The translations under genes were made by a program, and so were the position numbers. A model generated the notes under the pieces. The model saw only the letters and a program-made list of their open reading frames with translations. It ran no database searches and had not been told where the DNA came from. From a virus, in the UHGV virus genome UHGV-1347074: a DNA stretch of 11,347 nucleotides; one strand, written 5' to 3'. Position 1 is the first letter of the stretch. Each line of letters opens with the position of its first letter. Of the stretch, positions 1 through 11,347 are shown in pieces.

Positions 1-57
1 ATATAACGAGCCCCTCCTAAGGGCTAGTTGCAGGTTCGATTCCTGCAGGGGACACCA
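1..57 (+). tRNA. argW: tRNA-Arg (anticodon CCU), 3' portion only; the 5' end lies upstream of the window
   Basis: Anticodon stem-loop agccc/CTCCTAA/gggct at 9-25 with anticodon CCT at 16-18; T-arm gcagg/TTCGATT/cctgc at 30-46; acceptor 3' strand plus discriminator and CCA ending at 57. Matches from memory the E. coli argW sequence, with one possible difference. Confidence 0.85.
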
Positions 58-217
58 TGAACACCTCCCACAAAGTCCAACTTAGTACGTAACTCATTGA
101 TTTTAATTCATACATCTTATTTTATTCGTCCAGTAAAGTGCCATTATTTCTAATGGAATCTATACATCTTTGCGTATAACATTGTGTATAACTGAGTTCG
201 ATCTTTTTTCTATACAC

Positions 218-1393
218 ATGCTGCTATCTGACATCCAAATAAAAAGAGCAAAACCGAAGGACAAACCCTATACGCTTAACGATGGTATGGGACTATCACT
301 CCTCATCGACACAGCGGGCAGCAAAGGCTGGCGTTTCCGCTATCGCTTTGCAGGTAAGCCAAAGATGATTTCCTTTGGTGTATATGGCGATGTGTCGTTG
401 GCACAGGCACGTACCAAACGTGATGAAGCGCGTTCGATGTTGGCCAAAGGGATCAACCCAAGTGAAGCCAGAAAGGCAGATAAGATTGCTTTGCAGTTCG
501 CACATGAGAACAGCTTTGAGTCTGTGGCCAGAGAATGGCACTCATCGAAAAAAGCCACCTGGTCAGAGGGGTATGCAAAAGAGGTTCTCAATTGTATGGA
601 AAAGGATATTTTTCCTTTTATCGGCCAGCGCCCAATTGAGCAGATTGAACCACTAGAGCTGCTAACCGTCCTGCAAAAAATAGAGAAAAGAGGTGCGCTA
701 GAGCAAACCAGCAAGATCCGCCGCCGTTGTGGTGAAGTGCTTCGTTATGCTGTTGCCACTGGCAGAGCAAAGTATAATTTTGCACCCGATTTAGCTATCG
801 CACTCAACAAACCTAAAACTCAACACTTCCCGTTCCTGACTGAAAGCGAGTTGCCCGAGTTCGTCAATGCTCTGGATAACTATCAGGGCAGTTTAGTCAC
901 CAAATACGCCACGCAGCTGTTGATGCTAACAGGCGTGCGAACAATTGAACTACGTGCAGCGGAATGGGCTGAGTTTGATTTAGATAATGCCTTATGGGAG
1001 ATCCCCAAAGAACGGATGAAGAAACGCCGCCCCCATCTGGTTCCGTTATCTACTCAGGCGATCAGCATCCTGAAAAAGCTGCAAGAAATAACTGGGAATT
1101 ACAGCCTCGTTTTCCCTGGGCGAAACGACGTCAGGAAACCAATGAGCGAAGCCAGTATCAACAAAGTGATAAAGCTGCTTGGCTATCATGGTCGGTTAAC
1201 GGGTCACGGCTTCAGGCATACCATGAGTACTATTTTGCATGAACATGGTTTTGAAAGCGCCTGGATTGAAATGCAGCTTGCGCATGTTGATAAGAACTCT
1301 ATTAGAGGGACTTATAATCATGCGCAGTATTTAGAACCGAGAAGAAAAATGCTAACGTTTTATAGCAACCTTATATATAAATCATATATATGA
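218..1393 (+). CDS. int: Tyrosine site-specific integrase, P4 family (about 392 aa from the first ATG)
   Basis: N-terminus from the ATG at 218 (MLLSDIQIKRAKPKDKPYTLNDGMGLSLLIDTAGSKGWRFRY...) matches the conserved P4-type integrase N-terminal domain. C-terminal catalytic region has HGFRH ... LAHVDKNSIRGTYNHAQYLEPRR (box II and tyrosine). The ORF-track start at 170 is a TTG and was not used. Confidence 0.9.
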   Translation: MLLSDIQIKRAKPKDKPYTLNDGMGLSLLIDTAGSKGWRFRYRFAGKPKMISFGVYGDVSLAQARTKRDEARSMLAKGINPSEARKADKIALQFAHENSFESVAREWHSSKKATWSEGYAKEVLNCMEKDIFPFIGQRPIEQIEPLELLTVLQKIEKRGALEQTSKIRRRCGEVLRYAVATGRAKYNFAPDLAIALNKPKTQHFPFLTESELPEFVNALDNYQGSLVTKYATQLLMLTGVRTIELRAAEWAEFDLDNALWEIPKERMKKRRPHLVPLSTQAISILKKLQEITGNYSLVFPGRNDVRKPMSEASINKVIKLLGYHGRLTGHGFRHTMSTILHEHGFESAWIEMQLAHVDKNSIRGTYNHAQYLEPRRKMLTFYSNLIYKSYI

Positions 1394-2443
1394 TCTTTTT
1401 ATATCCGTTAAAATAGTATCTACATCGGTAAATGTTATGTTTATACAATCAATTAACTCAAATACTTGCTCTTCAATAAGAATAAAATCATTTTTTGGTC
1501 CAGTACTAATTTTTATACCAAGATCCCCAACTTTCTCCAATAAACTAACCTGATGATTTGTGTAAATATATTTTCCTCCGGGCTCTGTTATCTCTCTATT
1601 TGCAGAAAAAACAACATCAGCTATCGCATCAACTTTTAGCTTATACGAAGAAGAAACAGTAACATCACCTTTCTTCGAAAGTGGGAATATTAAACTATAC
1701 CATTTATATATATTCACCTTGTCTGGAGAAATAAACTTTCGTTTGTTTATTTCTGCATTCATATAATCTCTAAACATATTTAGATGTGAAATATGATTTG
1801 TTAGATTACTATTTTTTACGCCAGCTTTATAAGTCAACAACGCTATTCCAATACCACCAACGGTGGTGATCAATGTAATCAACCATGCTATTGACTGAAG
1901 GATAATTGATATGCCATTAAATCTACCAAAAAAGTAAGAAACACACTTATCTGATAGGCAAAATTCTTTCACATACAGTTTTTCATTATAGATCGTAATG
2001 CATAGTATGATGAGACAAGAAATGATACCAAGCATAAAAATAGCAAGGATAGTAATAACCAAGACTTTTAGCTCTTTTTCTTTCCCAAAATCCCCCAAAG
2101 GTAATTTATTAACCAAAGAACTAGTAATTTTATAAATATAAATAATAGTAGTTTTAATGCTCTTTATTAAAGCTGAAGGAGAATTAAGAACAAAGCAATA
2201 CAATGTATTAGCTAAAAATTTAACTCGTATAAAAATAAAGCTTCCTCTAATCTTTACCTTCCTATATTTTCTTTTTAGTTCAAATACTATTTTTCTACCT
2301 TCATCTGTCCCCAGAAGAACTAATCCAATATGTGATACTATATCCCTTAAGCTAACTCCCACCCCAATAAACGCCTTATGAAAAGATGACAAACTGCGTT
2401 TGAGAGATTCATAATTAGATTTTATTTCAGCTAAGCTACCCAT
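1382..2443 (-). CDS. Predicted two-transmembrane-helix membrane protein, candidate retron effector (353 aa)
   Basis: Two long hydrophobic segments (VLVITILAIFMLGIISCLIILCITIY and ISIILQSIAWLITLITTVGGIGIALLTY) separated by a short loop. Its ATG shares one base with the RT stop (TGATG on the - strand), indicating translational coupling. Very AT-rich, like the RT gene. Confidence 0.75.
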   Translation of the reverse strand: MGSLAEIKSNYESLKRSLSSFHKAFIGVGVSLRDIVSHIGLVLLGTDEGRKIVFELKRKYRKVKIRGSFIFIRVKFLANTLYCFVLNSPSALIKSIKTTIIYIYKITSSLVNKLPLGDFGKEKELKVLVITILAIFMLGIISCLIILCITIYNEKLYVKEFCLSDKCVSYFFGRFNGISIILQSIAWLITLITTVGGIGIALLTYKAGVKNSNLTNHISHLNMFRDYMNAEINKRKFISPDKVNIYKWYSLIFPLSKKGDVTVSSSYKLKVDAIADVVFSANREITEPGGKYIYTNHQVSLLEKVGDLGIKISTGPKNDFILIEEQVFELIDCINITFTDVDTILTDIKRSYI

Positions 2444-3639
2444 CAGTATTTAACCTTTTGAAGACGATCTCTGAATCCTTTTTCAATCAATAAAAAACCG
2501 GGAGTTCTTCTTAAAATAATAAGATTATATAGTGTAAGATCATATTTTTTCTTGTAATAATCTTTTTTAGAGTTCCCACCTTTATAGGAGTTCTCTAAAA
2601 ATTTAATAGCCCTATCAATTTTAACAATATCTCTTTTTGCTGCCTTAGGCTGAATATCTTTTAGTCTTAATGATAGCACCTTATATTTATTGTGATTAAG
2701 CCTACCTAATTTGTTCACGCGCCCAACACATCTATTATACTCTATCCTATAGGCTACACTTGTTATTGAGTTATTTTTCTTTGCCAGTTTTTCTAAATTA
2801 TGCACAGACGCTCGAATACGTCCGACCTCATCAGAAGGTAAGCGTGGTTCATTAAATGAGATTCGTAACCCATGTACTTTTAATGATTCAGTTGATATAT
2901 TGTGTACTTGAGTTTTATCTTCATTTATAGGTAAATCTTTACCAGCAAGCATATCTTTAATATGATCTAAAATCTGATTCATATTGTAGTTAACTAATTT
3001 TGATGAAACTGTAATATCATCTACCAGTCTCGTATAGACTAATTTCTTCCTTTCTGCTCTATTTACAATGTCAGATTCAACATCAAAAAGACATAACGAT
3101 GCTATATAACTAGAGGTCAAAGCGCCCTGAACAATAGTGTCGTCATAACAGCATATATCAGTTAAGTACTCTAATGCTTCGCCTTTAAATTTTAAAACCT
3201 TAGAAAATATACTATATACTATATCTCTATGAATATTATCAAAAAAATTTTTGATATCTACTTTAAGTATTGTTTTTGCATTACAGTGCTTACGGGCACA
3301 AGCGATATAATGCCGCTCAATTCCTTTTTTTTTCTCATCTTTATTGGTTGGAACTGAGCCATAAATGTAATCTGGCCATAATATCAGCTCTTTAAAGATC
3401 CTATTGTTTATCCTTTTTTGAATACGCCTTATTAGCTGGTGTGGATCATAAACATCTCTAAGTTCACCATTTATTTTTTTTACTTGCTTTTTCTTGTATC
3501 TTTGGTGGGAAGGCATTGCAATAGCAGTTTTTAAATCTGCTAACGTAATATCCAAGCAAGAACTTAAAGATTGCAAAGATCTGAGAGATTGTGCACCAGG
3601 TTTTTTTATAGGATTACGGGCAACCATAATATCTTCCAT
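2443..3639 (-). CDS. Reverse transcriptase, retron-type (398 aa)
   Basis: RT motifs readable in the translation: ILKVDIKNFFDNI (motif A aspartate), ICCYDDTIVQGALTSSYIASL (motif B), YTRLVDDITVSS (motif C) and a downstream KVHGLRIS at the position of the retron VTG motif. Overall pattern resembles Ec86-type retron RTs from memory. Confidence 0.85.
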   Translation of the reverse strand: MEDIMVARNPIKKPGAQSLRSLQSLSSCLDITLADLKTAIAMPSHQRYKKKQVKKINGELRDVYDPHQLIRRIQKRINNRIFKELILWPDYIYGSVPTNKDEKKKGIERHYIACARKHCNAKTILKVDIKNFFDNIHRDIVYSIFSKVLKFKGEALEYLTDICCYDDTIVQGALTSSYIASLCLFDVESDIVNRAERKKLVYTRLVDDITVSSKLVNYNMNQILDHIKDMLAGKDLPINEDKTQVHNISTESLKVHGLRISFNEPRLPSDEVGRIRASVHNLEKLAKKNNSITSVAYRIEYNRCVGRVNKLGRLNHNKYKVLSLRLKDIQPKAAKRDIVKIDRAIKFLENSYKGGNSKKDYYKKKYDLTLYNLIILRRTPGFLLIEKGFRDRLQKVKY

Positions 3640-4621: not shown

Positions 4622-4687
4622 CGTTCTGTGCCCTATACTGTTGCCCGCCAGAAGAAGGGATTTGACTCCCTACCTCTTGTTCTGAAC

Positions 4688-4880
4688 GTGTAACACTGGT
4701 AACACGTGTAACGCTATTGATTTAAAAGGATTTAATCTGTTACCAGTTAGCAAAATCAAGAGGTAACGCGTGGTAACACACCATTTTTTGTTACCTCTGT
4801 TACCAGTCAGTATTTTTGACTGGTAACACTGAAGAACCGTATCAGTAGCGGGTGTTACCTCTGTTACCAGTGTTACCTCA
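4688..4880. repeat. Iteron cluster, candidate replication origin (P4 ori/crr-like) for the adjacent primase-helicase
   Basis: At least 12 copies of GGTAAC(A/G)C / its complement TGTTACC in both orientations. An 18-bp direct repeat TGTTACCTCTGTTACCAG occurs at 4789-4806 and 4853-4870. An 11-bp perfect inverted repeat lies at 4799-4809 / 4817-4827. No ORF spans the region. Confidence 0.6.
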
Positions 4881-4903
4881 TATAAATAAGACTCACGCGA
4901 TAA

Positions 4904-7591
4904 TTACTCAGGTTCGGCGCTTCCCAGTACCTGTGTATTGAACTGGTACACACGTTTAAGCCCTATTTCTGGCAGGCGAATGCTGTTTTGCGTCCGGCCA
5001 TCTTCACCGGGTTTCAGCCAGCCCGCGTCCACACACAACCTGGCCACCTTACGCGAATCAAATCCCTTACAGATCTCCTTCCAGCCTGACGGGAGAACGT
5101 AGAACGTCACAACCGGCTCTGTCACGTTGTCTCCTTTATCGACTTTTCTGAATCCCATCATTGAAACAGGCCGGTTCCTGTCGTCATTCCAGTCAGCAAA
5201 CCGACTGAACTGATTACGCGTCATGAAGTCCCGTACCTGTTCAAGTGCCGCTTTATCTTCCTGATTAGCTGTATGGCCCCGGTCAGCCATCCATGCAGCC
5301 AGACAACTTTGAGCGGCACGAAAGGCCTCTCCCTCCGGCCATCCTGTGATGCCCGCTTTTGTGGCCAGCTCCCCGGCCATAGCAACCAGAGCAAAACGGG
5401 TAACAGCCCGGCCAACCTGATTCCCGGCATTTTCCGGCGTCAGCCTCCGGGTGTACTCTTTCAATAAGGCTTTCGCCTGGCTGGTCAGTTCCGGCAGATC
5501 AGCGGTCAGGCAATGCAGCCAGTCGCGGAATGGTGCACCATGATAATGCGCTACATGCTGCTCAAGATGCTCAGCCAGGGTTTTCCCGCTACTGAAGCCA
5601 TGAAGTTCTTCAAACACGCCATACTTGCCCGAATCGCTTGGGATCTGGATCATTCTGACCTCAACCCCGGCATACGTACGTTCCCCGGCGCTTGCCGCAT
5701 GTTCTACCAGTGACAGTTCCCCGGTGGACAGAAACAACAGATTCCAGCGGTTGGTTTCCCTTACAGAACCATCTGTTCTGGCTCTGGCTTTGCCCTGCCC
5801 GTTAGCCAGCATATAAGCGATATTCCCCGCCTCCCTGCCGTCAACCTCCCGGATTTCATCCAGCATCAGCGTGGCATCATTGCGGCGGCTCGCCGTTCCT
5901 TCTAAGGCATTCCCCGTCGCCCGCCACGTATGCCAGAAATCTGTTCCACCACATACTGATGCAGCCACTTTCATCGTCGTGGTTTTGCCGTCCGTCGATT
6001 CCCCTTTGAGGTGATAACCTCCACCGCCGATACCAACCAGTTTCAGAAGGGGGGCAGCAAATGCCAGGCTCACCGCAAAGGCCAGACGGGCATTCTTTAT
6101 GCAGTAACGGCCAAGATTTTCACGCCATTCCTCTGATGTACCGCTGACACGAAAATCACGCCCCTGCACGCTCGATGTTTGTAAGATGACTGACTGGGCT
6201 TCGCGCCCTATCACTTCATCCTGGAGAACGTAAACCCCGCCGTGCCAGCCCGTTTTATTTACACAGGTAACTTTTCTGTCCGGTTTACACAGCGAGATAT
6301 ATTCCATCAGGAATGCTCTGGCCATACCGTTAATGTTGATGTAAGAAAGCCCGTTAACCAGCAGAACGCGGCGCAGTTCTTCCCCGCTGCCACCCAGCAT
6401 CTCCATCGGCATTGCCCATTTACGGCTGTTTCCGTTGGTATCTTCCCATTCCAGCAAACGCCCGTAATTACTCCCATCAGCATCACTGGTGATTGCCGTC
6501 ACCCGCAACGGGCTGCAAATTTTGATATTGCGTATCTCCGTATCACCATCAGACTTATTAACCAGCTTGTCGTACCACAAATATTCTTTTGTCAGCCGGA
6601 ACCCTTCTGGTAAACGGGTCTGCCCTTTGCCATGCAGCGTCATTTCTTCACGAAAGGCATCTCTCGCCCGTTCTTTCCCCACTTCCTGCCGATAGTCATC
6701 CCAGTCAGCCTTATGGCGTACCGGAGGGAGCGTTACCCAGCCATCCACCGCTTTGGCGGCTTTCTCTGCCTGAATACGCCCGGTGTTTTCTTTCCCGTCA
6801 GCCAGATCATTATCTCCGGCCAGAATGATCCGGGTTTCCGGCCAGCGTTTTCGGATCTGCTCCGTCACCTTCAGTAAATTGGTGGCAGCGACAGCCGCCA
6901 CGATCCATCCTTCAGTCAGCAGACTGACGGTAAGCGCCGTGGCAAAACCCTCAGTGATAATCACCTGTTCAGGTGTTTCAGCGGGTATATCGGTCAGGGC
7001 AATGAATGCGCCAGACAGCTGGCTACCGGGCAGCAGACTTTTATCCCCGTCAGGATTGATAAGCTGACCACCGGTAATATTCCCGGAAATATCCGTCAAC
7101 GGCAGCAGTAATGAACCGGAGGAAAATGTTATTCCGGCCAGATTCAAAGGTTGTGACAGCAAGGGAAGTGAATACCCGTGTAAGCCCTTGTTTGTCAGAT
7201 AGACCGGCTCACCATTGCAGGACTGCTGTCTGAGTCTGGTATATCGCTCCGCACCCGCTTCTTTTCCTGTGGCCTTTTTCCTAGCGGGCAAAGCGGGCTT
7301 CTCCTGTATTTCTGGTAATGCAAGCGCCTCAGATACCATCCCGGCGGCTTCTTTTATCTTTCTTCCTGTCACCAGACGAACCAGATCAAGACCATCGCCA
7401 TGACCGCACTGATTACAAAACCACGTCCCACGCCCCGCTTTATCGTCCAGTCGAAAGCGATCTTTGCCACCACAGGCAGGGCAAGCCCCATGATGTCCTG
7501 CGGACGGTACTTTGATACCTAATGCTGACAGGATATAAGGCCAGCGCCCAATCGCAGCCCCGGAAATAGTGGATACAGACAGTGTTTTCAC
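4904..7591 (-). CDS. Alpha-type DNA primase-helicase (895 aa): zinc-binding domain + TOPRIM primase + P-loop helicase
   Basis: N-terminal CPACGGKDRFR ... WFCNQCGHGDG zinc-binding motif; TOPRIM-like ITEGFATA ... ILAGDND; Walker A GESTDGKT. GTG start at 7591 preceded by AGGAGG (7-nt spacer) and overlapping the upstream gene's stop (GTGA). Confidence 0.9.
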   Translation of the reverse strand: MKTLSVSTISGAAIGRWPYILSALGIKVPSAGHHGACPACGGKDRFRLDDKAGRGTWFCNQCGHGDGLDLVRLVTGRKIKEAAGMVSEALALPEIQEKPALPARKKATGKEAGAERYTRLRQQSCNGEPVYLTNKGLHGYSLPLLSQPLNLAGITFSSGSLLLPLTDISGNITGGQLINPDGDKSLLPGSQLSGAFIALTDIPAETPEQVIITEGFATALTVSLLTEGWIVAAVAATNLLKVTEQIRKRWPETRIILAGDNDLADGKENTGRIQAEKAAKAVDGWVTLPPVRHKADWDDYRQEVGKERARDAFREEMTLHGKGQTRLPEGFRLTKEYLWYDKLVNKSDGDTEIRNIKICSPLRVTAITSDADGSNYGRLLEWEDTNGNSRKWAMPMEMLGGSGEELRRVLLVNGLSYININGMARAFLMEYISLCKPDRKVTCVNKTGWHGGVYVLQDEVIGREAQSVILQTSSVQGRDFRVSGTSEEWRENLGRYCIKNARLAFAVSLAFAAPLLKLVGIGGGGYHLKGESTDGKTTTMKVAASVCGGTDFWHTWRATGNALEGTASRRNDATLMLDEIREVDGREAGNIAYMLANGQGKARARTDGSVRETNRWNLLFLSTGELSLVEHAASAGERTYAGVEVRMIQIPSDSGKYGVFEELHGFSSGKTLAEHLEQHVAHYHGAPFRDWLHCLTADLPELTSQAKALLKEYTRRLTPENAGNQVGRAVTRFALVAMAGELATKAGITGWPEGEAFRAAQSCLAAWMADRGHTANQEDKAALEQVRDFMTRNQFSRFADWNDDRNRPVSMMGFRKVDKGDNVTEPVVTFYVLPSGWKEICKGFDSRKVARLCVDAGWLKPGEDGRTQNSIRLPEIGLKRVYQFNTQVLGSAEPE

Positions 7592-7998
7592 AGCAGCACC
7601 TCCTGACCTTCCGGCTTCACAAATTCAAAACCTTCGGGTAGTTCGCCATCAGGTGCACCGAAAATAATATCCCGGTAAACCTCACGCATCTCTGTGACAC
7701 CAAAAACTGACAGGCGAATATTTTCTGACATAAAGCCCGGTTTAAGCATTTTTTCCAGTTTCTCTGCGGCCAGTATGCAACCAGCATCAGCCCCAAACTC
7801 ATTCACCCACGGCATTTCAATATGGTAAATAATATTGCTCACCACTTTTTCGTGGGTGAGTTCTATTCGTTCGCCATCTTCAATATAAACAGGTTCATTA
7901 TGAACACGCTCCATTAAGGAAATGAATGCATCAGCAATGTAGTACCGTAAGACTGCTGTTCGTAAAGCATGCGCCTTTAAATTTTGATTATTATTCAT
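7588..7998 (-). CDS. Hypothetical protein (136 aa from the ATG at 7998), first gene upstream of the primase
   Basis: ATG at 7998 preceded by GGGAGAG; start overlaps the stop of the upstream 78-aa gene (ATGAATAA) and the stop overlaps the primase GTG. The longer TTG-initiated ORF to 8058 was not used. Confidence 0.65.
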   Translation of the reverse strand: MNNNQNLKAHALRTAVLRYYIADAFISLMERVHNEPVYIEDGERIELTHEKVVSNIIYHIEMPWVNEFGADAGCILAAEKLEKMLKPGFMSENIRLSVFGVTEMREVYRDIIFGAPDGELPEGFEFVKPEGQEVLL

Positions 7999-8227
7999 CG
8001 CGCATCTCTCCCTTAATTGTGCTGGTTTCCTTAACAACGCCATCAAGTTGTTCGGCAATACAGGCCACTAAAGCCGCAGCGCCTTCCGCTGAAACAGTTC
8101 TCGCTCCATTCACTGTGGGAACGGACAGGACCTCTGCAAGAAACTCACTGGCCAGTGCCGCCCGTAACAGACGACTCTCACCCAGTTCGCTCAATATGCA
8201 GCCTTGCTTAAAATTCATGGATTTCAT
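7991..8227 (-). CDS. Hypothetical small protein (78 aa)
   Basis: ATG at 8227 preceded by GGAGGTG with a 5-nt spacer; overlaps the upstream gene stop (ATGA) and the downstream gene start. No recognisable motif. Confidence 0.6.
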   Translation of the reverse strand: MKSMNFKQGCILSELGESRLLRAALASEFLAEVLSVPTVNGARTVSAEGAAALVACIAEQLDGVVKETSTIKGEMRDE

Positions 8228-8427
8228 GCAACCACCTCCCCGGCACTTTTCACAGGGATGTGGGCAGCAAAGCTCAGGATAAATTCAGTGGCAAGTTTAA
8301 GGCGTGCAGCATGCTCGCAGTCTGCGATTACACGCACAGGACGTGGACGGGCATCACGGTCTGTACGGCGAACAGCCAGAAAGACAAAGATAAATTCAGG
8401 GTGAGATAAAGCAGGGACTGTAGCCAT
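8224..8427 (-). CDS. Hypothetical small protein (67 aa), first ORF of the replication operon (positionally analogous to P4 kil, function unknown)
   Basis: ATG at 8427 preceded by GGAGG with an 8-nt spacer. The ORF track extends this frame to 8814 (196 aa), but that extension crosses a repeat- and hairpin-rich leader and looks non-coding. Confidence 0.5.
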   Translation of the reverse strand: MATVPALSHPEFIFVFLAVRRTDRDARPRPVRVIADCEHAARLKLATEFILSFAAHIPVKSAGEVVA

Positions 8428-8429
8428 AA

Positions 8430-8725
8430 TGGCAACCTCCGTTAGATAGCGGGTAACGCTACCACCGGAGTTCCTACGCTCATGGGTGGTAGCCCAGACG
8501 GGGGTAGGAATACCGGCTCTAACGGATACCGGCCAGCCCGAAAGCTGCCCCGCCTGGACTACCATAATTCTGATGATGTGGCGTAAAAAATAAAAACATG
8601 CAGTCAGCCACCACACCATAAATTTTAGGTGAGTCAAAGCTACGACACAAAAAAACACGCCTGGCGCGTGTTGTGTCGCCGTTAGATTACACGGGTTCCT
8701 ACGCCCGGCTGCCGATTTTGCGGCA
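8430..8725 (-). ncRNA. Candidate structured leader / immunity RNA region (P4 CI-RNA-like; Rfam C4-type), boundaries approximate
   Basis: Direct repeats CCGTTAGAT...GTTCCTACGC at 8439-8479 and 8679-8708. An internal segment (8499-8516, containing GTAGGAA) is largely complementary to both copies. Strong hairpins at 8458-8466/8485-8493 and 8643-8678. Confidence 0.3.
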
Positions 8726-8733
8726 ACCTTTAA

Positions 8734-8763
8734 ACTATATCCCGCGCATTCCTGGTGAGGCAA
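8734..8763 (-). promoter_or_regulatory. Candidate sigma70 promoter for the leader and replication operon
   Basis: On the - strand, TTGCCT (-35; + strand 8758-8763), an 18-bp spacer, then TATAGT (-10; + strand 8734-8739). Predicted start near 8726, just upstream of the first repeat copy. Confidence 0.3.
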
Positions 8764-8866
8764 GAAATTTATAACCGAAAACTGAACATTGCCTGGATTA
8801 ATTAACGCTGGCATGCTTAAGCCTCTGCTTAAAAATAGTTCTTCATTTTTCCTGATGCTGTAAACG

Positions 8867-8888
8867 AGACCCGCCTCTGAGCGGGTCT
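8867..8888 (-). terminator. Candidate terminator hairpin downstream of the capsid-homolog gene
   Basis: Stem agacccgc/gcgggtct with a 6-nt loop, 14 nt past the stop at 8902. The U-tract on the - strand is weak (CGUUUACAG). Confidence 0.3.
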
Positions 8889-8901
8889 TTCTGTCGCGAA
8901 G

Positions 8902-9906
8902 TCAATCAGCAAACGTCAGGGCGCTCTCATCAACAGCCGCGTACAGTTCAGGTTCACCGAGTGCATAGCCTTCATTGCGCAGGTAGGAATGTACGTATTC
9001 ACTGTTTTCATCATCAAACTCAGCACGAAACCACCGTGTTATCGCCTGAGTGTAAATATGCAGATTATTCAGCGTCGTTACTGCCAGACGCTTACCCGGC
9101 ATAAACGGGGGAATAAACGCAAAGCGGCCAGCAACAGAACTTGTAGCCATCTGTGCAGCATTCACATCAGCCGGGCGGTCTGCGGCATTAAATAACTTCA
9201 GGCGTTGATGTGCTGCCAGCTCTGCCCCAACCAGAACAACCAGACGGGGATCTTCACGAAACTGCTCAGCAATAAGCTCAGTAATCAGATGGTTGGCCAT
9301 CGCATCAATATTTTTCCAGGTGCCAGTCTCTCCCAGCGTGACAGGCTCAGAGATGATTTGCTTTCCGTTCCCGTAGGCTTTCGCCAGTGCATGCCAGCCA
9401 ATATTGACATCCTCGCCTTTTTTATTGATTTCCGGGTTTGTAGTATTTGCAATCGACACACCATTGAAACCGACCCGCAGCATGTCCAGCGCATATGCCT
9501 GGGCAAAAAAGCTCTCAACCGTTTTCTCAAACCCATCCGGCACGCCGGTATGGTAAATATGAGACATATCGGAATAGCTGATCCGGGCGCAGGTATCCGT
9601 CTCTGTCAGAAAGAACTCCGTACCATTGATTGCCATTTTTTTGTGGAAACGGCCACCATCCACACGTCCGGTATGCAGTTCACTGGCACCAATATTGACT
9701 GCATTACCTGACACGGCGTTAACATCACGTAGCGTGATATTTTTAATAAGCCACCCGGATTCCAGAATTGACGTACGCAGTATATTTTCAGTGGGTTCGC
9801 TTAATGCAAAGCGTCTTTTTGATTCCTCCTGATAGTTAGTGCCAGTAACGAATTTATTATGATAACGACGTGCTGCGTCCGGCCTTTCAGTTTTGAAGGC
9901 ATACAT
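8902..9906 (-). CDS. P2 GpN-like major capsid protein homolog (334 aa)
   Basis: Several blocks align by eye with P2 gpN as recalled from memory: GFNGV, DV.(I/V)GW, EDPRLVVLVGAELAA (vs EDPDLVVIVGRQLLA) and TTLNNLHIY (vs TKLENLSIY). ATG at 9906 preceded by GGTGA. Confidence 0.7.
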   Translation of the reverse strand: MYAFKTERPDAARRYHNKFVTGTNYQEESKRRFALSEPTENILRTSILESGWLIKNITLRDVNAVSGNAVNIGASELHTGRVDGGRFHKKMAINGTEFFLTETDTCARISYSDMSHIYHTGVPDGFEKTVESFFAQAYALDMLRVGFNGVSIANTTNPEINKKGEDVNIGWHALAKAYGNGKQIISEPVTLGETGTWKNIDAMANHLITELIAEQFREDPRLVVLVGAELAAHQRLKLFNAADRPADVNAAQMATSSVAGRFAFIPPFMPGKRLAVTTLNNLHIYTQAITRWFRAEFDDENSEYVHSYLRNEGYALGEPELYAAVDESALTFAD

Positions 9907-9929: not shown

Positions 9930-10790
9930 TTAAGAAAAGATTTTATTTTTGTACTCAGTAACCCGATTGTATTTCATTACATGCTCAACATAATCCCGGT
10001 CACTTACGACTGAACGTAATACATAATTATCTGCTCGATAGTACTCCCTGTAAGCCATAGCTCTTGCCATTCCACCGTTATTTAATACATAACGATCAGT
10101 TGGAACGCTACAACGGCTAATAATTTCATTCACGGAATCAGACAAAGATTTGAGTGCGTCTGTAATAAATTTAATATCACGGACAACGTCACCGTCATTA
10201 AATACAGAAATAAAATCAGCAGGGATCTGGCCGGATTGAGGAAATATGTTCAGTAAACGCTTCTCGACTCCCTTACCAATGTAGTTCACTTCATCGGCCA
10301 GTACGCCCGGTAAAAGCTTGATCGTGCTCAGTCGGCTATGTTGCTCATTCAGCCGGGAAACAGCCAGATGGTAACACCGTTCAGCATCCGCTCGTTCAGC
10401 ATGCCCCGTTTTATTCGTTTTGGCTTCAGCAATGCTACTGACGCCGTTTTTTGAGAATGTGCTTTTCCATGCAACTTCCGCATTTGTCACTTCACGCTGC
10501 CGGAAAGATAACTCTTCCTCTTCCTGACGACACAACTGGGCATAACGGCTTAGGAGCAGGTTGATCTCATTCGCCACAGCTTCCGTATCAGGTACTGTTA
10601 ACCCCGTAAGTGAATACAGCTTTTCACCTTTAGCACGCAGCTTATTCAGTGAATAGATTTCGATAATACGCACAATACAGGCTGTGTCGCTATGAGTTTC
10701 TTTAAATGGTCTTACTTTGTAACTATCTAACACCGACACATGTTCGTTCTTAATTGATGCCAATTTTTTCTTAAAAACATTGTCAACCAT
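9930..10790 (-). CDS. Hypothetical protein (286 aa), immediately upstream of and co-oriented with the capsid homolog
   Basis: ATG at 10790 preceded by GAGGTG; 23-nt gap to the capsid gene. Lower G+C than the flanking capsid and primase genes. No motif recognised; not similar by eye to P2 gpO. Confidence 0.8.
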   Translation of the reverse strand: MVDNVFKKKLASIKNEHVSVLDSYKVRPFKETHSDTACIVRIIEIYSLNKLRAKGEKLYSLTGLTVPDTEAVANEINLLLSRYAQLCRQEEEELSFRQREVTNAEVAWKSTFSKNGVSSIAEAKTNKTGHAERADAERCYHLAVSRLNEQHSRLSTIKLLPGVLADEVNYIGKGVEKRLLNIFPQSGQIPADFISVFNDGDVVRDIKFITDALKSLSDSVNEIISRCSVPTDRYVLNNGGMARAMAYREYYRADNYVLRSVVSDRDYVEHVMKYNRVTEYKNKIFS

Positions 10791-10807: not shown

Positions 10808-11035
10808 TTAGGAGTTTAATTTTCTATTGAGAATATTCTTCTCTATCCATTCATTAACTTCATGCTCCACCCATGCAACAGAACGAGAACCGATAGAAAC
10901 TTGGTTCGGAAATTCATCATTCTTTATCTTTAGATAAATTGTTGACTTGGGTAAGCCAGTCAAATTAATCACTTCTGATATTCTCAGAAGTCTATATCTT
11001 TTTTGGGGTGCGTTTTCCCGAGGCAATAAGCTCAT
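10808..11035 (-). CDS. alpA: AlpA-family prophage regulatory protein (HTH; excisionase/transcriptional regulator-like), about 75 aa
   Basis: Pattern RLLRISEVINLTGLPKSTIY ... FP ... G.RSVAWVEHEVNEWI matches the AlpA family. ATG at 11035 preceded by GAAGGA; the ORF-track start at 11050 is a GTG five codons upstream. Confidence 0.8.
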   Translation of the reverse strand: MSLLPRENAPQKRYRLLRISEVINLTGLPKSTIYLKIKNDEFPNQVSIGSRSVAWVEHEVNEWIEKNILNRKLNS

Positions 11036-11145
11036 GGCTATGTCCTTCACATTAGATATTTATACTAAGACTTAATTAGTCTCTATTGGGTGTATATATA
11101 CTTGCACAGAAGAATTAATACGTAAAGAATGACACTTTCAAACTT

Positions 11146-11290: not shown

Positions 11291-11325
11291 GGCTGGGCTG
11301 GGCTGGGCTGGGCTGGGCTGGGCTT
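11291..11325. repeat. Pentanucleotide simple-sequence repeat (GGCTG)6 plus one imperfect unit
   Basis: Six perfect tandem GGCTG units at 11291-11320 followed by GGCTT; read directly from the sequence. Confidence 0.9.
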
Positions 11326-11347
11326 GCCCGGGAGACAGAATGTGGAG

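Follow-up and report, generated by a model that had tools for sequence, protein, structure and literature searches.

The region at positions 8430-8766 of the window (the whole 11,347-nt stretch of DNA analyzed here, from the UHGV virus genome UHGV-1347074) is, in our confident reading, an immunity region that belongs to a P4-like satellite prophage and has as its homologue in P4 the PLE - seqA - cI(seqB) - seqC - kil/eta region. Five things were established directly in the window: the homology with P4, the RNA folds, the complementarity of three sites that co-vary among relatives, the location of one of these sites (b2) at the ribosome-binding site of kil, and the gene context of the operon. 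This type of RNA-based switch is already well described for P4, P1, and their relatives and is captured by Rfam. A preliminary description of the same DNA had pointed to an analogy with the P4 CI RNA, and this analogy is borne out by Rfam matches to both C4 and IsrK, by the homology with P4, and by the covarying sites across 62 loci. In a blastn comparison with phage records, the region aligned with the P4 immunity region over ~400 nt at 71.6% identity (query 159-554, P4 8285-8707). All features of the immunity region, read over 8100-9100, are on the minus strand. Together with the downstream operon they are as follows:

8734-8763, minus strand: PLE-like promoter from the promoter scan, TTGCCT (8763-8758), 18-nt spacer, TATAGT (8739-8734)
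8650-8727, minus strand: IsrK/seqA leader RNA, full-length match to Rfam RF01394, 71.8 bits against a gathering score of 50
8573-8619, minus strand: spacer hairpin AUGGUGUGGUGGC ... GCCACAUCAU with a U-rich loop, seen when the 313-nt leader is folded and situated 5' of C4 in the precursor
8482-8569, minus strand: C4/CI antisense RNA (seqB), Rfam RF01695, 81 bits against a gathering score of 45
8436-8477, minus strand: seqC target, with a2 GUAGGAA (8477-8471) and b2 UCUAACGG (8446-8439), exact complements of a' and b'
8224-8427, minus strand: kil/icd-like gene, 67 aa, ATG 8427-8425, NCBIfam phage_ICD_like at 66.6 bits against a cut-off of 25
8224-8814, minus strand: eta-like ORF, 196 aa, ATG at 8814 with AGAGG 8 nt upstream, ending together with kil
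4904-8227, minus strand: downstream operon, putatively controlled by the switch, with orf78 (7991-8227), orf156 (7588-8058), and an alpha-like primase (4904-7591)

Leader RNAs and their pairing sites

The promoter proposed in the preliminary description, TTGCCT-18-TATAGT, is present, and no other minus-strand promoter-like site turned up between 8150 and 8950 in the promoter scan. The P4 promoter, when aligned pairwise with it, has the same two hexamers at the same spacing, and the same TATAGT is annotated as the -10 box in the early P4 record X02534. The IsrK model starts 7 nt past the -10 box, and the transcript is predicted to start at ~8727. By analogy, the PLE-like promoter would be constitutive.

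The IsrK/seqA RNA is predicted to fold into two 5' hairpins, with a1 GUAGGAA (8702-8696) in the loop of the second one and b1 UCUAACGG (8686-8679) single-stranded. According to the terminator scan, positions 8672-8654 form an intrinsic terminator with a U run after it. The c4-a1b1 family RF03163 matches 8688-8740 with 43.7 bits, just below its gathering score of 46.7. Taken alone, the IsrK segment folds no better than its shuffles (z -0.9). The two strong hairpins that had been seen earlier in this leader correspond to the intrinsic terminator and to the C4 fold (-47.8 kcal/mol, z = -5.1).

The Rfam scan for C4 that the preliminary description had proposed is positive, with nearly twice the gathering score and with model positions 1-87 of 87 covered. 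The minimum-free-energy fold of C4 coincides with the consensus fold: two hairpins are closed off by an outer stem of 17 bp (8564-8548 with 8503-8487), the loop of the second hairpin holds b' CCGUUAGA (8525-8518), and a' UUCCUAC (8510-8504) lies in an unpaired stretch 5' of the closing-stem strand. Across 18 homologues, including PY54, phiKO2, and a Stx1a phage, 100% of the cells in this fold are paired, and 13 compensatory pairs were found, as compared with 0-3 when the partners were slid. In the Stx1a phage the IsrK and C4 matches lie inside a coding sequence annotated as 'antirepressor Ant'. The closing stem of C4 in the window is followed by ACCA-CCCAU, which resembles the P4 arrangement at the level of sequence; processing of CI and C4 by RNase P has been documented for P4 and P1 (PMC5499578). 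Upstream of C4, the spacer hairpin holds an in-frame ATG (8619-8617) at the place where the old P4 'cI/ash' ORF was started, and the spacer motif ATGGTGTGGTG is conserved in P4, as seen in the pairwise alignment.

The direct repeats reported for this leader are all exact: on the plus strand, CCGTTAGAT occurs at 8439-8447 and 8679-8687, and GTTCCTACGC at 8470-8479 and 8695-8704. The segment 8499-8516 between them had been described as a single stretch of about 20 nt complementary to both copies. It does pair with both, with 8495-8510 complementary to 8696-8711 in 14 of 16 positions and 8504-8516 complementary to 8465-8477 in 11 of 13, but the complementarity extends further, to a second module at 8518-8526 that had been missed and that pairs with 8438-8446 in 9/9 and with 8679-8686 in 8/8 positions. 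Recognition is bipartite, consisting of an a module and a b module, as in P1 c4, rather than of one continuous segment. The C4 b' CCGTTAGA and a' TTCCTAC have exact complements of 8 nt and 7 nt, respectively, both upstream (a1/b1) and downstream (a2/b2), and b2 (8446-8439) overlaps the kil Shine-Dalgarno sequence GGAGG (8440-8436). The minus strand has two copies of the bipartite motif GTAGGAA-N(1-30)-TCTAACGG, and the complement of this motif is present once; none turned up in 200 dinucleotide-preserving shuffles.

A scan of duplex energies, in which an unstructured 36-nt seqB was run against the whole window, did not single out seqA and seqC: their duplexes reach ~-35 kcal/mol, and two unrelated minus-strand sites reach ~-38 kcal/mol. 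Since duplex energy is non-discriminating, the specificity of pairing rests on the exposed loops and on covariation, together with the statistics of the exact motifs.

Concerted changes of the recognition motifs in related satellites

Two public collections were scanned with a C4 scaffold in which the loops were left free (GCCGGTATCC-N6-GCCGGTATTC-N3-CCCCCG). The scan yielded 14 genome loci and 46 viral-contig loci, and the covariation counts given here are over 62 loci. Wherever the flanking DNA was long enough, the locus proved to be a P4-like satellite with a primase downstream. A 53-kb viral contig with the window's specificity (L034) was considered as a full phage that has its immunity in common with the satellite. 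This was rejected, since the locus has the primase of the satellite together with orf78, orf156, and delta; long contigs of this kind in IMG/VR probably represent prophage regions in which a satellite was included.

The 62 loci have nine b' types and two a' types in ten a'/b' combinations, and the b' of the window is found with either a' type. Exact complements of the locus's own type are present at a1 in 62/62 loci, at b1 in 54/62, at a2 in 62/62, and at b2 in 59/62, whereas cross-type matches amount to 1/496, 0/496, 0/62, and 0/62. Most of the own-type exceptions are single-base differences, and in some of them a G-U pair is still possible. The offsets of a2 and b2 from C4 (+21 and +52, identical in P4) are fixed in 62 and 59 of the 62 loci, respectively. 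When the sites were extracted by position, 96.4% of seqA-seqB and 95.8% of seqB-seqC positions were paired, as compared with 31-44% in slid controls, and compensatory changes were observed at 8 of the 15 pairs in either duplex.

The window itself differs from P4 in the same concerted manner. Its recognition loops are not identical to those of P4: the a module is GTAGGAA (a1, a2)/TTCCTAC (a') in the window and GTGAGAA/TTCTCAC in P4, and the b module is TCTAACGG/CCGTTAGA in the window and TTCACAGG/CCTGTGAA in P4. Hence two positions in a and four in b, six in total, have changed together at all three sites, and because of these six differences the window element is predicted from its sequence to be heteroimmune to P4. 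A smaller step is seen in two close relatives (L021 and L025), where b' is CCTTCAGA and the same two substitutions relative to the window occur at each of b1, b', and b2; their AlpA, primase, Delta, and integrase proteins are 97-100% identical to those of the window, and Kil is 94% identical. The exact recognition motifs of the window are kept in a Kosakonia locus (L005) with a 55% identical kil and in an Enterobacter locus (L017) with a 70% identical kil.

Two P4-type satellites from IMG/VR (L039 and L047) have b' CCTATGAC, which does not match their own b1 and b2, and b1 of L047 matches another type (GTTATCGG, the partner of CCGATAAC). These two immunity regions may be recombinant or decaying.

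The kil gene and the overlapping eta frame

The first translated gene of the operon starting from the PLE-like promoter is predicted to be kil, which is 51% identical to the P4 kil region. The longer, eta-like frame that ends with it starts upstream of the promoter and then extends over the full RNA leader. Of its 196 aa, only 141-188, within the 67-aa ORF, are matched by the Icd-like model, and aa 26-141, a stretch that coincides exactly with the RNA leader (IsrK-C4-seqC), match the Pfam family Phage_ASH (PF10554). The reading of Phage_ASH as a mere spurious translation of the RNA leader was revised, as the frame is kept open and corresponds to P4 eta. The 196-aa product is 50% identical to the 199-aa P4 eta (E 4e-51). 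Among 39 distinct leaders, the frame in line with kil is free of stops in 33, the other two frames averaging 4.9 and 2.8 stops; 38 of the 39 leaders have at least one frame open from end to end; and the leader lengths among relatives differ by multiples of three. The open frame thus kept and the 50% identity together indicate that the 196-aa frame corresponds to P4 eta, and it is probably a genuine ORF.

In P4, the stop of orf88 is overlapped by three tandem ATGs, from which a frame of 199 aa starts; its last part is the 65-aa kil. According to the summary of Forti et al. (1999) given in PMC10111431, the constitutive P4 promoter lies inside eta and Kil is a truncated form, whereas synthesis of the full Eta depends on the upstream late promoter alone, and translating it keeps transcription from terminating. 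The preliminary description had set translation of the 196-aa frame against an RNA-based switch. This is a false dichotomy: P4 eta is translated and coexists with the RNA switch (PMC10111431), and since the 196-aa frame is the homologue of P4 eta, its translation in the window would be compatible with such a switch.

The two parts of the frame evolve differently. In example comparisons, kil has an excess of substitutions at third codon positions (18/15/30, 15/12/26, and 8/8/18 at positions 1/2/3), whereas the eta-only part has no such excess (6/7/7, 7/7/11, and 5/6/4). This pattern is consistent with a situation where translation of eta matters and the amino-acid sequence upstream of kil does not. 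In the P4-type region, a Rho-dependent terminator in kil (timm) acts when kil is left untranslated. The start of kil in the window is C-rich and G-poor, with a C/G ratio of 1.4-1.9 against a background of 0.8, a composition at most compatible with a Rho-loading site.

These data bear on two readings in which the leader would not act as an RNA switch at all. If the region were only a protein-coding gene for a 196-aa Icd-like protein, the repeats and the matches to RNA models would be by-products of coding. This agrees with the current annotation, in which RefSeq/PGAP describes the whole 8224-8814 frame as 'host cell division inhibitor Icd-like protein' (WP_072301592.1 in L003), including in a 99.4%-identical copy, and it also agrees with the Phage_ASH match, the open frame, and the length differences in multiples of three. 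However, the Icd-like model is confined to the last 67 aa, the third-position excess of kil is missing upstream of it, a promoter and an intrinsic terminator lie within the frame, and the compensatory changes in C4 and among three separate sites are left unexplained by protein coding; moreover, the ORF and the RNAs coexist in P4. We consider this reading extremely improbable, and hardly more credit is due to the suggestion that the locus is a decayed remnant, with a non-functional leader in a cryptic prophage and with conservation reflecting recent ancestry. Many enterobacterial P4-like islands are indeed defective, and b' of L039 and L047 no longer matches b1/b2. In the window, however, the three sites match perfectly, all ORFs of the operon and the C4 fold are intact, and Kosakonia and Enterobacter elements with a diverged promoter-proximal region, spacer, and proteins (e.g., kil at 55%) retain this leader type. 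The persistence of this leader type despite its diverged surroundings indicates selection rather than recency.

Another alternative, unlikely in our view but with a better claim than these two, concerns the role of the short RNA and is modeled on the IsrK - STnc1160 - orf45 - anrP locus of Salmonella Gifsy-1. There, an RNA of the IsrK family is followed by a C4-like processed RNA (STnc1160) from the same promoter, and IsrK activates translation of orf45-anrP (PMC4825925). By this model, the IsrK-like RNA of the window would be a trans-acting activator that opens the leader for translation of the first ORF, or a decoy that titrates C4, rather than a co-target of termination. The full-length IsrK match with its own terminator fits such a role, and a1/b1, being exact copies of a2/b2, could compete for C4. 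On the other hand, the Gifsy-1 IsrK is reported as a translation activator of a lambdoid antiterminator module, and the genetic context of the window is different: it is that of a P4-like satellite with a primase, Ogr/Delta, and integrase, not that of a lambdoid antiterminator module. In addition, homology with the P4 leader spans the whole region, and P4 seqA is reported to be needed for the establishment of immunity (PMC3632133). The Gifsy-1-type and P4-type roles of the IsrK RNA are not mutually exclusive.

Proposed switch, its known counterparts, and the satellite context

For the P4-type immunity switch that we favor, the transcription start, the small RNAs, the RNA processing, and the Rho-dependent termination in the window are all predicted by homology, and the following scheme can be suggested. 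Transcription from the constitutive promoter 8763-8734 would start the leader at ~8727, and many transcripts would end at the intrinsic terminator 8672-8654, giving an IsrK/seqA RNA of ~78 nt. Transcripts that read through would serve as the C4/CI precursor, from which RNase P and 3' trimming may produce a stable RNA of ~70-80 nt. In nascent leaders, the exposed b' loop and the a' strand of this RNA would base-pair with seqA at a1/b1 and with seqC at a2/b2. The duplex at b2 would hide the kil ribosome-binding site, so that kil would remain untranslated, and the untranslated C-rich RNA would be open to Rho, leading to termination within kil, before orf78, orf156, and the primase. Replication would thereby stay off in the lysogen, and superinfecting copies that share its specificity would likewise be kept from replicating. 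On transcripts from an upstream late promoter, eta would be translated through the leader, preventing pairing and termination and making this expression insensitive to immunity. Of the genes that would be controlled in this way, the alpha-like primase has the Pfam domains DUF927, Toprim, and Zn-ribbon primase and a PHROG match to DNA primase, and the gene order of the operon is the same in related satellites.

The window shares with P4 the pair of Rfam matches, IsrK and C4, in the same order, the layout with two targets, the nesting of kil within eta, and the replication (primase) operon downstream; in P4-like prophages, IsrK is seqA and C4 is CI (PMC3632133, PMC4825925). There are also differences. 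The terminator-to-C4 spacer is 27 nt shorter than its P4 counterpart and folds into the U-rich hairpin, no epsilon homologue is present, and the primase is only ~38% identical. Further, eta of the window is preceded by a capsid-like gene and a hairpin, whereas P4 eta overlaps the vis/alpA stop. Because eta of the window is thus uncoupled from the alpA/vis homologue, the source of transcripts on which eta would be translated is uncertain.

In the immI locus of P1 and P7, the c4 antisense RNA controls icd-ant by means of a' and b', which are directed against a1/b1 and a2/b2. As in the window, recognition by the a and b modules is bipartite and an Icd-like ORF has b2 at its ribosome-binding site; the RNA, a substrate of RNase P, is released from the very transcript that it targets, and by analogy the same may hold for the window. 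The downstream cargo is different, namely, an antirepressor in P1 and replication genes in the window. Antirepressors are also found downstream in the N15-like linear-plasmid prophages PY54 and phiKO2, where the layout is IsrK - C4 - icd - antA/antB and the antirepressors are beside the protelomerase. These prophages are 83-86% identical to the window over the IsrK and C4 segments and have the same Rfam matches; their a' is TTCCTAC as in the window, but b' differs (CCGTTGGG and CTGATTGG), and the spacer is almost absent.

The window as a whole is a P4-like satellite prophage. Outside the immunity region and its operon, the following features were identified:

1-54, plus strand: 3' tRNA remnant, Rfam tRNA at 33.7 bits, cut at the window edge
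170-1393, plus strand: tyrosine integrase, adjoining the tRNA remnant
1382-2443, minus strand: type IV retron effector 2TM_IV, 290 bits
2443-3639, minus strand: type IV retron reverse transcriptase RT_IV, 603 bits
4349-4621: Ogr/Delta zinc-finger gene
8902-9906, minus strand: full-length homologue of the P2-family major capsid protein, Pfam Phage_cap_P2 E 9e-67, PHROG major head protein
9930-10790: 286-aa ORF
10808-11050: AlpA homologue

The tRNA remnant, whose anticodon loop CUCCUAA is Arg-CCU-like, and the integrase form the attachment-site end of the satellite. The retron cargo (1382-3639, minus strand) is situated between the Ogr/Delta gene and the integrase. At the same position, a 99%-related element of E. 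coli BCE049 contains Kiwa (KwaA/KwaB), and the site looks like a defence hotspot with swapped cargo. Repeats GGTAACA/TGTTACC in both orientations form a dense cluster at 4700-4900, between the primase stop (4904) and Ogr/Delta, which is likely an iteron-type replication origin for the alpha-like primase. The capsid homologue, located directly upstream of eta, is conserved in the subfamily of satellites to which the window belongs, and none was found in loci with the P4-type architecture. It is followed by a GC-rich hairpin, GACCCGC-N6-GCGGGTC (~8866-8889), with a poor U tract. Near the right end, upstream of the alpA region, a tandem pentanucleotide run (CCCAG)n of ~6 units is found on the minus strand at ~11296-11330.

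Sites of the form TGT-N12-ACA, which is that of Ogr/Delta activator sites, occur at 11091-11108, just upstream of the alpA-like gene, and at 4678-4695, upstream of the Ogr/Delta gene; the IsrK segment contains a third, which is there by chance. In the window as a whole, their count (3 versus 2.8 expected) is not above chance. These boxes were therefore rejected as evidence for late promoters, their positions being suggestive only, and we retain 11091-11108 as a candidate PLL-like late promoter that, judging from its sequence, might feed eta translation.

This satellite is common in E. coli. A copy of the immunity region with 99.4% identity is present in E. coli BCE049, where no RNA feature is annotated under the match, and among 5,426 complete E. 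coli genomes, 448 contain 80% or more of the immunity region, almost always at 95% identity or higher. The result for this locus opens no new question and is mainly a correction of annotation: in place of one 'Icd-like' coding sequence, the region should be described by a promoter, two small RNAs, their targets, the 67-aa kil/icd gene, and the overlapping eta. This correction and the catalogue of co-varying a/b specificity types are the parts worth keeping. The predicted heteroimmunity of a common E. coli satellite matters for experiments with P4-like elements that carry defence cargo.

With some hesitation, we suggest that the a/b loops might work as an 'immunity barcode' of P4-like satellites, with modules that recombine and are subject to diversifying selection; the ten a'/b' combinations and the concerted substitutions in L021 and L025 would fit this picture. 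Under such a barcode, the a' module common to the N15-like phages PY54 and phiKO2 would allow partial cross-talk between satellites and phages. If the a/b alleles are truly heteroimmune, one cell could hold several satellites, and specificity could switch through short gene-conversion tracts.
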